64,000 nucleotides of DNA from Eledone cirrhosa (Eukaryota): the NCBI GenBank assembly GCA_964016885.1, contig OZ024755.1:37758001-37822000 (forward strand), given 5' to 3'. How positions within the stretch are numbered: position 1 is the first letter of the stretch; every line of letters begins with the position of its first letter. Below the pieces are notes generated by a model. That model searched no databases and was not told where the DNA came from. It saw only the letters and a list, made by a program, of their open reading frames with translations. Positions 2,806 through 63,808 of the stretch are shown here, piece by piece. A program made the position numbers and the translations under genes.

Positions 2806-3334
2806 GTCTGAAGAGGTCATAGCTGTTGAATTGTGGCTATCACCTCTTCTAACTGTCTGAAGAGGTCATAGCTGTTGAATTGTGGCTATCACCTCTTCTA
2901 ACTGTCTGAAGAGGTCATAGCTGTTGAATTGTGGCTATCACCTCTTCTAACTGTCTGAAGAGGTCATAACTGTTGAATTGTGGCTATCACCTCTTCTAAA
3001 TGTCTGAAGAGGTCATAGCTGTTGAATTGTGGCTACCACCTCTTCTAACTGTCTGAAGAGGTCATAGCTGTTGAATTGTAGCTATCACCTCTTCTAAATG
3101 TCTGAAGAGGTCATAGCTGTTGAATTGTAGCTATCACCTCTTCTAACTGTCTGAAGAGGTCATAGCTGTTGAATTGTGGCTATCACCTCTTCTAACTGTC
3201 TGAAGAGGTCATAACTGTTGAATTGTGGCTATCACCTCTTCTAACTGTCTGAAGAGGTCATAGCTGTTGAATTGTAGCCATCACCTCTTCTAACTGTCTG
3301 AAGAGGTCATAGCTGTTGAATTGTGACTATCACC
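2806..3334 (+). repeat. 49-bp tandem repeat (about 11 units) of a hammerhead 5' half
   Basis: Unit GTCTGAAGAGGTCATAGCTGTTGAATTGTGGCTATCACCTCTTCTAACT; each unit is a hairpin. Confidence 0.95.
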
Positions 3335-3346
3335 GAAATATAACGG
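3294..3346 (+). ncRNA. Minimal hammerhead ribozyme motif
   Basis: CTGT-CTGAAGA-GGTCATAG..CTATCACC-GAAA-TAT-A-ACGG; short stems I and III. Confidence 0.6.
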
Positions 3347-3734
3347 CAATGAAAAAAGTAAATTATGAAATGTTGACTTATACCTCTTGTTTATAAATTT
3401 ACTCAGGAATTAATAGACCCTCCTGTGGACTTCGTTGAGTGTTCTACCCTGCATACTGAAGTGTTGGTGTTAACACATAATCTAATTTATATATATATAT
3501 ATATAAAGGAAGGCAAAACTCCTGGGTTTTTACCTTCCTTTATGCCCACTCTGCTTCTCCCTATACATAGAATACTACCCATATTTATGTATATATCATC
3601 ATCATCATCATACCTGCTTGCAAGGGTGGGATGGGTCCTATTCAGCACAGCATCTCTCCAGTATTACCTGGTTAACAATTCATGTGGTTATGGTGTGATC
3701 TACCGACACAGATGCCTTCAGCATCTCAGCAGCT

Positions 3735-4345
3735 ATACCCGATGGACCGGATGTCCATGGGAACTTCTGTATGTGGATGATCTTACACTTATAGCTGAAT
3801 CTATAGCGGAACTAAAGAAGAAATTCCAAACATGGAAGCAGGGACTAGAAAGAAGGTGTCTCAAAGTCAACCTGACAAAGACTAAGGTCCTCGTAAGTAG
3901 ACGAGAAAACAGAACCCAAATCCCCTCAGGGAAATGGCTTTGCTCAATATGTAGGAAAGGTGTTGTAGGTAGGAACTCCATCCTCTGTCCCAAGTGCCAA
4001 CTATGGGTACACAAGAGATGTAGTGGGATCTCAGGAAGCTTTGCTAAGAATGTAGGCTTTACATGTAGCAGCTGCACCGGGACAGTAAATAGCAAACAGC
4101 CACAGGAAACAAGCACTACCAAACTCTGGGAGAGCTCTGTAGAAACAGTAGACAGCTTCTGCTACCTAGGTGACCGAATTAGCAGCAGAGAGGGGTGTTC
4201 TGAAAGTACAGTAACCAGGGTAAGAACGGGATGGAATAAGTTCAGGGAGCTACTACCACTGCTAGCTGCAAAATGCTTTTCTCTAAAAATGAAAGGCAAA
4301 CTGTATGATGTGTGCATACGAACAACAATGTTACATAGTAGTGAG
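3735..4345 (+). pseudogene. RTE-clade RT fragment
   Basis: [12 protein letters not shown]...CSICRKG...WVHKRC...DSFCYLG, homologous to ORF 57178-58809. Confidence 0.9.
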
Positions 4346-4567
4346 AAAACATTTAATGAATCACAGAGAAAGTCACATTTTCTTTTGCTCTCAGCATTTT
4401 TAAATACATCAACATAGTGAAGTAGGCATGGCTGTGTGGTTAAGGAGTTCGCTTCACAAGCACATGATTCTGGGTTTAGTCCCTCTGCACAGCACCTTAG
4501 GCAAGTACCCTGGATTGAGCAATGCCTTGTAAGTGGAATTTAATAGATGAAAACTGTAGACACCCAT

Positions 4568-4810
4568 TCATCATCATCATCATTGTTTTACGTCCATTTT
4601 CCACACTAGCATGGGTTAGATGAGTTGTCCTGTTGTAGGGAAGTCTTGCTCATACAGAACTTATTTCGGCTTGGTTTCTACAGCCGGATGCCCTTCCTAA
4701 TGCCAACCTCATTTACTGTTTGTACTGGGTGCTTTTTGTCGTGATGCCTACACATCCACTTTACAGTGAGGACTGGGTGCTTTTAGTCGTGACGCCTACA
4801 CGACCACTAG
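4568..4810 (-). mobile_element. RTE 3' UTR fragment
   Basis: (CAT)n tail followed by TTTTACGTCC...GGATGCCCTTCCTAA, shared with the other RTE ends. Confidence 0.75.
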
Positions 4811-5213
4811 GAATACTCCTTGCCAGAACCTCTGAGGTCCAACACAAACTATGTTAGGAATGTTGTCTGAAGAATGATAAATTGCTACATGTTGAGTTGA
4901 CATTGAAACTAGATGTAATTTATTTTTAGGAAATAGAGAAGAGGGAGGGACATTTTTAGCTGTTTTTTCTTGTAGATCAAATGACTTGATATAGTTTTCC
5001 TCTGCTTCTTAACACTGACATTGATTTCTCAGCCTAGTGTATTAGTGTATATCATCCTTAGGTTGACATTTTCTTCTACCAAGTCAGGACAAGGGTGTCA
5101 TGCCTGTTTTCCTCAGCAATACTTTCACCATCATGTCTGCAGGACCACAGCTAAGATATATTGTCTAGCCAATACTATAGAATTTCCCTCTTTCCCATTT
5201 CACTCCTCACTTT

Positions 5214-60466: not shown

Positions 60467-60663
60467 AACGAAGGAAATGTGGTAAGGAACCAGGTGGACC
60501 ATAACGCACCAAAGTACTCAATACTTGAGGTAGTAGAGTGGGTAATAGGAACCAGTAAGACCCCGACAGCTGAGCTCAAGCCGTTTCGACGGCTAATTCT
60601 GGAGTCCAGAATTAGCCATCGAAACGGCTTGAGCTCAGCTGTCGGGGTCTTACTGGTTCCTAT
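60467..60663 (-). mobile_element. Fold-back insertion (H13)
   Basis: Near-perfect 59-bp arms 60545-60603/60605-60663, (TA)n flanks. Confidence 0.7.
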
Positions 60664-60746
60664 ATATATATATATATATATACATGTATATATATATATA
60701 TATACAATATTAAATAAATGGAAAACTATATTTATAAAACCATATT

Positions 60747-60812
60747 TATTTCATTATATATATTTCGGGGATATCATATTAACAATATGCTATGCCTTCA
60801 TCAGACAAAATA
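60747..60812 (-). ncRNA. Minimal hammerhead ribozyme (H2 family)
   Basis: TATTTTGT-CTGATGA-AGGCATAGCATATT..AATATGATATCCCC-GAAA-TATATAT-A-ATGAAATA. Confidence 0.75.
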
Positions 60813-62659
60813 CAATATAAACAGTTTTATAGATAAATATATTCGACATACCGTAATAAACATCAACTTCATTATTTAATATTGTAAATATACTCCAAAT
60901 ATTTGTCGAGTGCTTTTATATCAGTTATAAATATTTACTAGTTGTAACCCAACAATTTTAAATATAACTTTACATATATATATATATATATATATATATA
61001 CATGTATATATATATATATATATATATATATATATATATATATATATATATATATATACATGTATATATATATATATATATATATATATATATATATATA
61101 TATATATATATATATACATGTATGTATGTATATATATATATATATATATATATATATATATATACATATATATATATATATATATATATATATACATGTA
61201 TGTATGTATATATATATATATATATATATATATATATATATACATATATATATATATATATATATATATATATATATATATATATATATATATATATACA
61301 TGTATATATATATATATATATATATATATACATGTATATATATATATATATATATATATATACATGTATATATATATATATATATATATACATGTATATA
61401 TATATATATATATATACATGTATATATATATATATATACATGTATATACATGTATATATATATACATGTATATATATATACATGTATATATATATATATA
61501 TATATATATGTAAATAAATATACACAGGTGTGTATGATTGTGCATAGAAGATTATATTAATAAAAGGAATTCCAACTTTGTCTGATTATACATACATACA
61601 TACACACATACATACATACACACACACATATATATATACACACACTCACATGCGTCCATTACACAGTACACAGTACACGTTTGCTTCTTCCAGTTTCCTG
61701 CTTGTAGCTCTTAAAATAGCTCTATTCCTGTTTGAGCAAAGGAACATTTTTAGAAAAATTTCCCTCTTGCTCTCATCCAGCATAACTTTCACAGTTATTC
61801 ATACAGACACACAGATGTATATATATATATATGTATACATATATGTGTGTGTGTATGAGAATGTGTGTGAGCATATATATATATATATATGTAGATATAT
61901 GTATATAGATATGTGTATATGTATGTATATATATATATGTGTGTGTATATGTATATATATATATATGTGTGTGTGTATGTATGTGTGTGTATATATGTGT
62001 GTATATGTATATATGTGTATATGTATATATGTGTGTATATGTATATGTGTGTATATGTATCATCATCATCATCATCATATATATATGTGTATATATGTGT
62101 GTATATGTGTGTATATGTATATATATATGTATATGTGTGTGTATATGTATATGTGTGTATATGTATATATGTGTGTATATGTATATGTATATATATGTGC
62201 GTATATGTATATATATGTGTGTGCGTATATGTATATATATATATGTGTGTGTATATGTATATAGATGTCTGTGTGTATATGTATATATGTGTGTATATAT
62301 ATATATATATAACATTTTGATGAATACATAAAATTATTAATCATGCCTGTCAGATGTGCAGGTCAAGCAGAGTGTCTGTGCAGGTCAACCAGAGTGCTAG
62401 AAATAGCCATTAGAGCCTAAAGTCAGCTCTACTAATTTAAAATTTCCCAATTTTGTTTAGGGGTATCCAAATACTATGTTGTGTATATGGACACTTATAT
62501 AGGTGCAATGACATAAGAAGTTCTGAGAGTACATAACGGTGGTAAAAGGTCGATTTCTACTATCCATACACACACACACACACACGTGTACACACACACA
62601 CACACACACACGCACACACACACACACACACACACACACACACACACACACACGTGTAC

Positions 62660-63335
62660 ATGTGTAATGCTGTATGGTAGTGAAACGTGCTTAGTCTGCA
62701 GAGGACGTGTGTAGACTGCTGGAGAGAAATGAAGCAACCAACGCCCCATCGGATGTGCAATGTAAGTGTGAGAGAGAAGCGGAGGTTGGATGAGTTGAAT
62801 GAGATGCTAGGTTTGAGAGGAATTGAAGGTGGTGTGCAGGAGAGAAGACTGCACTGGTATGGACATGTGATACGCATGGACATTGATTATTGGGTGAAGT
62901 GGATTGGCAGTATCGGTGGGCGGTGGATTGGCAGTATCGGTAGAGGGTCGTAACTATGCTTTCCAGCATAGTTACGTCCCTTTACGATCTGAGTTCAAAT
63001 CCCGCCGAGGTTGACTTTGCCTTTCATCCTTACGGGGTCGATAAAAATAAAGTACCAGTAATGCACTGGGTAATTGCTGGCCTTGTGCCTAAAGTAGAAA
63101 AAAAAAAAAATTATTGGGTGAAGTAGTGCCAGGAAATCCTGGTGGAAGGTAGCTGCAGTAGAGGTTGACCAAGAAAGACATGTGGAGAGGTTGTGAGAGC
63201 TGACCTCAAATCACTGAGACACACAGAGGAGATGACAAAGGGTCGTGATGTGTAGAGAGATGCTGTGCTGAGAAGGATCCATACAACCTATGCAAGCATG
63301 GGAAACTGGACGTAAAAACGATGATGATGATGATT
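62660..63335 (+). mobile_element. Old RTE 3' fragment interrupted by SINE A (62899-63110)
   Basis: VQERRLHWYGHVIRM; TTATTGGGTGAAGT duplicated on both sides of the SINE. Confidence 0.8.
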
Positions 63336-63380
63336 ATATATATATATATATATATATATATATATATATATATACACACA

Positions 63381-63808
63381 CAATATATTAACAAATGGAA
63401 ACTATATTTATAAAACCATATTTATTTCATTATACATATTACAAGGACACCAAAGCAAACTATGGTGCGCTTTCATCAGATAAAATATAATATAGGTTAG
63501 TTTTATAAATAAATATTGACATACCCTTAAAAAATATCTATCTAAAAATATCCAGGAGATTCCAACCAGAATGGTTGCATTTTTTAAGGGTATGTCAATA
63601 TTTATTTATAAAACTAATCTATATTATATTTTATCTGATGAAAGCGCACCATAGTTTGCTCTGGTGGCCCTTGAAATATGTATAATGAAATAAATATAGT
63701 TTCCATTTGTTAATATATTGTATATTTACTCCAATAATTTGTTGAGTGTTTTATATCAGTTATAAAAATATTTAGCTTGTTGTATCCCAACAAATTAAAT
63801 ATAACCTC
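63381..63808 (+). mobile_element. Fold-back Penelope-like insertion (H2)
   Basis: Arms about 63381-63533/63580-63722 plus tail, same layout as 18281-18712. Confidence 0.75.
63627..63692 (+). ncRNA. Minimal hammerhead ribozyme (H2 family)
   Basis: TATTTTAT-CTGATGA-AAGCGCACCA..TGGTGGCCCTT-GAAA-TATGTAT-A-ATGAAATA. Confidence 0.8.

Follow-up and report, generated by a model that had tools for sequence, protein, structure and literature searches.

Hammerhead ribozymes in Penelope-like elements (PLEs), the targeting of (TA)n runs by PLEs of the Hydra clade, inverted pseudo-long terminal repeats (pLTRs), tails and retrozymes are all known (published sources are cited here and below from the parts of their texts that were available). 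The minimal hammerhead motifs of PLEs are reported to be slow or conditional (PMC4209133), and in vitro a PLE protein nicks and extends both strands of its target; its reverse transcriptase (RT) initiates at two internal sites delimiting the tail, and ribozyme cutting is not required (PMC11167929). A promoter inside the pLTR is established for Drosophila Penelope (PMC2377424). The origin of the short inverted inserts of PLEs and the function of the hammerheads have been named as open questions (PMC8557442; PMC11167929). Here we describe hammerhead-bearing inserts in a 64,000-nucleotide stretch of the Eledone cirrhosa genome (assembly GCA_964016885.1, contig OZ024755.1, positions 37,758,001 to 37,822,000, forward strand), the whole of which is called the window. 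The host genome is 3.0 Gb in size and rich in (TA)n, simple repeats and fragments of long interspersed nuclear elements (LINEs).

The observation in the window is confirmed as real: the inserts are ribozyme-bearing end pieces of known mobile elements and of gene-less relatives. We consider it probable that these islands are the hammerhead-bearing pLTR ends of endonuclease-containing (EN+) PLEs of the Hydra and Neptune types and of tandem relatives, many of them arising when reverse transcription of an uncut transcript is primed within its 5' pLTR and runs off at its start. The analysis provides one testable mechanistic clue: many of the inserts end at a position where the element's own transcript probably starts.

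Hammerhead-bearing inserts in the window

The 15 sites belong to 12 dispersed repeat families when 18528, 33827, 60747 and 63627 are counted as one lineage (family A), in agreement with the about 12 families proposed in the initial annotation of this DNA, and every site listed there was present in its place when the window was re-checked. The inserts are as follows (those without a single orientation are marked unstranded).

2805..3487, plus strand: family O; a 49-bp tandem array of the hammerhead 5' half that leads into a single full hammerhead at 3294-3346 (cleavage predicted after 3342); the 3' end lies at (TA)9
18283..18713, plus strand: family A; an inverted arm, a sense arm whose hammerhead spans 18528-18592 and is predicted to cut after 18584, and a tail of 83 nt on one side; belongs to a Hydra-clade PLE as its 3' pLTR
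23970..24460, unstranded: family B; hammerhead 24007-24077 on the minus strand with stem III ATGCGCAT, and a hammerhead-less, tail-bearing arm at ~24290-24460
25834..26015, minus strand: family C; hammerhead-like fold 25885-25976 with weak stem I, core CTGACGA in this copy
27976..28203, plus strand: family D; hammerhead 28024-28100, core damaged in this copy
31405..31631, plus strand: family E; comes from the 3' part of a non-coding tandem unit of 1,297 bp and holds an intact hammerhead (31504-31583, cleavage predicted after 31575)
31683..32058, unstranded: family F; inverted arm, which stops at the predicted transcription start of the family and contains hammerhead 31733-31804 (minus), shortened and damaged sense arm, tail
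32098..32520, plus strand: family G, pLTR of a Hydra-clade PLE; a hammerhead with a U4A core in both the inverted and the sense arm (the sense one at 32363-32413, cleavage predicted after 32408), ~88-nt tail
32544..32845, minus strand: family H; hammerhead 32614-32699, GAAA changed to TAAA here; piece of a 459-464-bp tandem unit
33792..33975, minus strand: family A subtype; the inverted arm contains the hammerhead 33827-33892, and the sense arm and tail are partly deleted
34271..34463, unstranded: family J palindrome; the sense hammerhead (34401-34449) reads TAAA instead of GAAA and has an ordinary stem III hairpin
34493..34815, minus strand: family K; intact hammerhead 34676-34815, stem II of ~95-105 nt, stem III ACGATCGT
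59614..59861, minus strand: family L, 3' end of a Neptune-type RT + GIY-YIG PLE; intact minimal hammerhead 59775-59819 (stem III AGTACT), predicted cut after 59783; 5' end at the predicted start of the family
60705..60973, minus strand: family A subtype; an inverted arm that contains the hammerhead 60747-60812, and a tail
63375..63808, plus strand: family A subtype; the inverted arm (63423-63487) has a damaged GAAA, and the sense hammerhead lies at 63627-63692; a tail is present

A strict scan of the window returned seven matches (18528+, 24007-, 31504+, 33827-, 59775-, 60747- and 63627+) that combine a core without deviations, a stem III of palindromic sequence and five or more of seven stem I pairs, compared to a mean of 0.05 (maximum 1) in 20 local dinucleotide shuffles. 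With looser settings, 22 matches were found in the window and 2.6 in the shuffles. The type I hammerhead (CUGANGA, GAAA and UH with three stems, open at stem I) is intact in nine window copies, and most family loci have an intact core. Among the best-scoring copies that were taken as family loci, the core is intact in 20 of 20 for A, 18 of 20 for E, 17 of 20 for F, 15 of 15 for K and 24 of 30 for L, and in 13 of 20 for H, 11 of 20 for J and 8 of 15 for O.

The initial annotation had reported 13 folds and two variants. Nine of the 13 are intact, including 3294+, which passes the scan with a 4-bp stem I, and 34676-, where an 8-bp stem I encloses a very long stem II. Two keep the core with a weak stem, i.e., 25888 with a stem I of only ~3 bp, and 31737 with the non-palindromic stem III ATCCAAAT, in place of which 17 of 20 family loci carry ATATATAT. 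The other two have a broken core: 28024 reads CCGACGA in this copy and CTGACGA in its relatives, and in 34401 GAAA has become TAAA. As to the two variants, 32617 is a damaged copy (TAAA) of a core that is intact in most of its family loci, which brings the damaged cores in the window to three, and the CAGAAGA core of 32363 is family-wide. The description of the motifs as minimal hammerheads with an often palindromic stem III applies to families A, B, C, E, F, K, L and O, and nearly to D and H; G (32363) and J (34401) have an ordinary stem III hairpin and are therefore not minimal.

Stem II covaries. In 20 motifs from the related A, B and F lineages, two-sided changes occur at all five proximal pairs and at 9 of 20 pairs, and 93% of the cells are paired, compared to 37-54% when the partners are slid. 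The observed pairing was reached in 0 of 500 shuffles, a count that should not be read as a probability given that the sequences are related. A 710-kb sample was drawn as 71 segments of 10 kb each at round coordinates; 64 motifs in 31 sequence clusters were found in 36 of the segments, and five shuffles gave 2-5. The net density is ~86 per Mb, or ~2.6x10^5 motifs genome-wide (canonical cores only; a rough figure, as the matches clump). At the same settings the window holds 10 matches and is not unusual; the dense population described in the initial annotation is typical of the genome. That the motifs are chance matches in AT-rich, low-complexity DNA could be argued from stem I of A, B and F, which is nearly all A-U, and from the chance yield of the looser scan. 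This explanation is refuted by the shuffle contrasts in the window and in the 710 kb and by the covariation of stem II, and the motifs also hold a fixed place in PLE ends; we give it practically no credence. A search of Rfam yielded nothing at the gathering score and no hammerhead family among the 150 best of 262 weak matches, a negative result that is uninformative because its models miss these forms.

Several further observations were made on these motifs and inserts. Two CTGATGA cores at 50123 and 50266, 143 bp apart, are followed by stem II-like hairpins without GAAA and are possibly decayed hammerheads. The array of family O (2805-3334) is a 49-bp minisatellite of ~11 copies, and shorter arrays are found in L256, L257, L259 and L263 (L numbers denote genomic loci). 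The family B 3' arms at 24290-24460 and ~31205-31380 are near-identical, lie 7 kb apart and have the same degenerate stretch in place of the hammerhead.

Parent elements and tandem units

Elsewhere in the genome, five of the 12 families, which account for 8 of the 15 sites, are linked to Penelope-like open reading frames (ORFs), four of the Hydra clade (A, D, G and K) and one of the Neptune type (L). A genome search for GIY-YIG gave 150 scored matches, of which 50 loci were examined; in six of these, the L insert matches the 3' end of one element family, after the ORF, with 92-99% identity. Pfam identifies RVT_1 and GIY-YIG in the L ORF, which also contains GxKF, DKG, a CX4CxxC linker and two cysteines within the C-terminal GIY-YIG. 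In L161 and L162, family G is present as units of ~3.26 kb with a pLTR on either side of the ORF; in L163 there is an intact ORF of 708 amino acids. A Pfam search with this ORF gave no match; it carries the Hydra motifs KRLRWRAF, SDKTG, CNCRNRADC, CDLC and CKH, lacks CCHH and resembles Hydra-1_Obim by eye. The other three links were found by tblastn to the G ORF. Family A follows related Hydra-type ORFs after ~1.5 kb of shared untranslated region (UTR) in L210, L212 and L214, with the subtype of 60747 following the ORF in L214; a pLTR precedes a Hydra-type ORF for D in L215 and for K in L225 and L227. The Hydra and Neptune assignments rest on motifs rather than on an RT tree, and Nematis may be an alternative to Neptune for L.

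Family E occurs as a 1,297-bp unit repeated three times in L164, the longest ATG ORF of which has 47 codons, and H occurs as dimers at 459-464 bp. Judged by their tandem units with one hammerhead each, E and H look retrozyme-like. No parent ORF was found for B, C, F, J and O in the examined loci, where flanks of 0.5-1.5 kb were searched; the genome search for B, in which common words were skipped, returned no matches, and this family was followed via incidental copies only. The link to parents with RT and GIY-YIG that the initial annotation anticipated is thus found for five families, and its proposal of separate PLE derivatives or retrozyme-like elements fits E and H, whereas the five linked families are the ends of ordinary autonomous PLEs. 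Since the Hydra ORFs escape Pfam and the hammerheads escape Rfam, repeat libraries of such genomes probably miss or misfile them.

Two interpretations of parent loci were abandoned: that family A is a fixed-length non-autonomous element, as longer copies led to the Hydra ORF, and that the second ORF of L055 is a tandem PLE copy, as it belongs to a LINE. Three copies of family K lie 6,907-6,908 bp apart at G000:C1:420382652-420396799, a large tandem unit. Among the output listed for the GIY-YIG loci L020-L070, a canonical hammerhead was present in one of nine 3' UTR groups in the region from the stop codon to the first run of TA.

Anatomy of the inserts

Runs of (TA)n lie at both sides of 12 of the 15 inserts and at one side of the other three, and a (TA)4 run lies at most 250 nt downstream of 56 of the 64 sampled motifs, compared to 28% of random positions. 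The initial annotation's views that the inserts target (TA)n and carry inverted pLTR arms agree with these counts, with the ORF-linked PLEs and with the inverted arm seen in ~8 of 15 inserts. Each family tested has two 3' ends, which lie at +56/+139 from the cut site in A, +56/+134 in E and +137/+172 in L; in G they lie 88 nt apart, at 1719 and 1807 of L163, in public contigs (these contigs, used for G and L ends, are of unrecorded kind, some possibly from the source sample, and their depth played no part in the analysis). In inverted inserts, one arm ends at the first 3' end and the other bears the tail, which measures ~80-90 nt in A, E and G and ~35 nt in L. This pattern of an inverted pLTR plus tail is the known PLE pattern. 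In 20 family A copies, 35 variants were shared by both arms and 26 were confined to a single arm, and the arms differed by 1.3 bases within a copy vs. 3.9 between copies. Such likeness would fit one template per insert, with twin priming and fold-back not separated. The tails begin alike with TATTTAC in A, E, H and L and with TATTTGGC in G, although the families are unrelated; the motif is perhaps part of an RT start signal.

5' ends and putative promoters

The 5' ends were examined in best-scoring copies collected with the 3' part of each element, so that selection was not driven by 5' length. For J and F, 20 of 40 scored matches each were fetched, and one long reference copy was excluded per count. 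Gapped-alignment calls for F and J were dropped as palindromes confounded them, and the ends were re-measured by ungapped extension of the longest arm, which halts early at indels in long copies. In family L, 13 of 30 copies end in one 8-nt window and eight of them at a single base, an A preceded by T that lies 31 nt past TATAAAA; it is the A of ACAGTT, 73 nt upstream of the predicted cut site. The binomial P is ~1e-7 to 1e-10 under exponential truncation, for a window chosen after the fact. Non-inverted copies (L300, L303, L319 and L324) end at the same base, and loose contig ends fall at this cluster (3377-3381 of L166) in three runs of one study.

Relative to the predicted +1, the 5' ends are piled up at one position per family: 14 of 28 measurable L copies (of 30) lie in -1..+5, eight of them exactly, 17 of 18 J copies (of 19) in -2..+7, 9 of 16 F copies (of 19) in -1..+9, 18 of 30 A copies in -1..+8 and 8 of 29 G copies (of 30) in 0..+8. 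The same holds for a hammerhead-less family, Y, which was never deliberately sought: 10 of its 12 ends lie in 0..+5, with TATTTAAA at -29 and the start TTAGTC. A TATA-like box lies ~30 nt upstream in up to four of the six families, at -31 in L, -32 in F (TATATAAA), -29 in Y and, as a weak TATAAC, -30 in J; a strict box at -33..-28 has a background rate of 1.8%, and a looser box one of 3.5%. These clustered 5' ends are predicted to be transcript starts. At the cut site itself no pile-up was detected, either among 87 incidental ends (5, from four loci, in -1..+2) or among the L copies (2 of 30 in -1..+4). A reading of the G boundary as a splice site (TTAG or TTTCAG) was also weighed, and inspection by eye showed no fitting donor.

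Proposed mechanism and alternatives

We infer a series of steps, from nicking to joining, by which such inserts could arise. The GIY-YIG endonuclease would nick both strands of a TA run, two RT molecules would initiate at the pair of internal sites delimiting the tail, each would copy back to the 5' end of the RNA, and the two complementary DNAs would join head to head; the product would have one arm in inverted and one in sense orientation, and a tail on one side only. The clustered short copies would come from priming within the 5' pLTR with run-off at the transcript start, and longer copies from priming in the 3' pLTR plus ordinary truncation. The hammerhead would cut slowly, as a dimer or with the help of protein, after or apart from copying, which would explain why most inserts keep it whole. 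In its most specific form, the proposal says that pLTR inserts, whether solo or inverted, have not failed but are full run-off copies of the first 100-300 nt of the transcript, made by twin internal priming in the 5' pLTR on uncut RNA, that insert ends therefore map PLE promoters throughout the genome, that G and J transcripts begin at the first base of stem I and that Hydra family G spread with a U4A core predicted to cut slowly; we put this full version at somewhat below an even chance.

The last part of that version concerns natural core variants. The CAGAAGA core (U4A) is found in all 30 searched loci of family G and in 74 of 78 distinct matches across all collected loci, and G nevertheless has near-identical copies and an intact ORF; its cutting is predicted from the core to be slowed. 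Family C has CCGACGA (U4C) in 14 of 15 loci, and U4C is a natural viroid variant with lower activity (PMC3088659). The term U4A does not occur in the available text of that paper, and a literature search on U4A gave no paper. The two families are ready tests of whether cleavage matters for spread. At L351 (~5780, minus), a G inversion junction turns U4A into a canonical CTGAAGA core.

Several points weigh against the run-off proposal. Parents are missing for B, C, F, J and O, and the D link depends on one locus. A and G have no TATA box at the predicted start, and the +1 positions were chosen after the clusters had been seen; in F and J the TATA box was also known when the choice was made, and these two families are therefore partly circular. 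The 5'-end samples are best-scoring rather than random, and the A query began ~24 nt downstream of its cluster, which inflates that cluster. In G and J, the cluster falls on the 5' edge of stem I, a place at which RT could be halted by structure in the RNA or cDNA. Tail lengths in A, E and G exceed the published 30-40 bp, and the tandem units of E and H as well as the tandem or repeated G and K copies would also be expected from a circular template.

The same PLE ends might instead derive from ordinary priming in the 3' pLTR with early truncation, the 5' clusters being hot spots of RT stalling or fold-back at the stem I edge, short palindromes or pyrimidine tracts. Truncation at the 5' side plus an inverted copy is indeed the standard description (PMC8557442), the clusters of G and J lie at stem I (almost every J copy begins there), that of L overlaps a CAACTG/CAGTTG palindrome, and that of A abuts a long pyrimidine tract. 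Yet the four non-inverted L copies stop at the same base as the inverted ones, the clusters of L, F and A are a good distance upstream of the hammerhead, a cluster is also seen in Y, which has no canonical hammerhead, and the TATA spacing is canonical in L, F and Y; on balance we think stalling unlikely as the general explanation. Less likely still is a retrozyme route, in which hammerheads would cut tandem transcripts into monomers that are circularized and copied by PLE RT into (TA)n, making the islands partial copies of circles. Such a route was proposed previously (PMC4209133) and was shown for non-LTR retrozymes (PMC7229834), and it would suit the exact 1,297-bp period of E with its lack of long ATG ORFs, the H units and the finding that the next unit or ORF continues beyond the 3' end of each family. 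A circle has no 5' end, however, and the sharp 5' clusters are therefore left unexplained; five families are the ends of coding elements; and ribozyme mutants of an Anolis PLE insert normally in vitro, with no RNA-seq read ending at the cut site (PMC11167929). For E and H, the retrozyme route may still apply. Run-off on uncut PLE transcripts thus stays our preferred reading for the islands as a whole.

If the 5' ends of the inserts are transcript starts, a short circuit within the 5' pLTR would explain why pLTR pieces far outnumber full elements, and the genome itself would show uncut RNA as the usual template. If G and J transcripts start at stem I, the ribozyme would be a device to remove the capped 5' end, not to make circles.

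Neighboring repeats

Other repeats also occur in the window. The X/Y family (26027-26318, ~26700-26880, 28226-28477 and 60468-60660) is abundant and PLE-shaped, with an inverted arm, an ~80-nt tail, (TA)n flanks and a fixed 5' end after a TATA-like box; it has no canonical hammerhead, is represented by 15 arms in the 710 kb sampled and is possibly of Naiad type. Family Z (44325-44467), between TA runs, is dispersed with seven other copies and has a conserved hairpin and, in the examined part, no canonical hammerhead. A repeat headed by a tRNA sequence (1365-1669, 18040-18261 and 44481-44700) was set aside as a short interspersed nuclear element with a fixed 3' end and no hammerhead; the copy at 1365 has an inverted duplication of its 3' part, partly repeated at 1686-1800. 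A LINE-type RT ORF at 57178-59660 (minus; RVT_1 with a PHD-like finger, 547 amino acids open) is broken by a long (TA)n expansion at ~59212-59613, and fragments of the same LINE type lie at 3377-4417, 10721-11293 and 28451-28852.

Comparison with known systems

The minimal hammerheads in the pLTRs of metazoan PLEs (Cervera and de la Pena, 2014, PMC4209133) share with those described here the type I fold with a short palindromic stem III, the many families per genome, and the predominance of solo motifs from truncated PLEs, with opposite-strand pairs 100-700 bp apart. The genomes counted there had ~2,000-9,000 motifs (~9,000 minimal ones in Xenopus tropicalis) vs. the ~2.6x10^5 estimated here, which also exceeds the 126,247 hammerhead motifs of the axolotl (PMC7229834). 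In this genome, stem III is of the ordinary kind or stem II is very long in some families, and the U4A and U4C family cores do not appear in the part of that text covered. With the Hydra clade, including Hydra-1_Obim (Craig et al., 2021, PMC8557442), the G ORF shares RW, DKT, CxCX5C, CxxC and CxH and the lack of CCHH, and the inserts share (TA)n targeting, an end hammerhead, the inverted pLTR and the one-sided tail. Differences from that clade are the G unit of ~3.26 kb vs. generally under 3 kb, tails of ~80-90 nt vs. 30-40, the U4A core in G and several further families. Family L has the GxKF, DKG, CX4CxxC linker, two cysteines in GIY-YIG and tail of ~35 nt of the Neptune type (PMC8557442). 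It has an upstream TATA box, in contrast to the internal promoter of Drosophila Penelope, which is reported to be TATA-less (PMC2377424).

The non-LTR retrozymes (PMC7229834; Li et al., bioRxiv 2026.07.22.740005), for which a PLE origin has been proposed, resemble E and H in having tandem units with one type I hammerhead. At 1,297 bp, E lies above their range of 51-972 bp (Li et al., bioRxiv 2026.07.22.740005), and the copies here are mostly dispersed partial units in (TA)n. Poseidon PAc of Anolis carolinensis (Frangieh et al., 2024, PMC11167929) shares the two internal RT starts that bound the tail, AT-rich targets and an uncut RNA substrate. Its 3' start sites were mapped in vitro and in the genome, while the text covered holds no mapping of genomic 5' ends to promoters; literature listings held no paper on a promoter-anchored origin of solo pLTRs. 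Beyond the cited papers, as far as their available texts go, this genome adds 5' ends piled up at putative starts and a family-wide U4A core in a Hydra element with an intact ORF.

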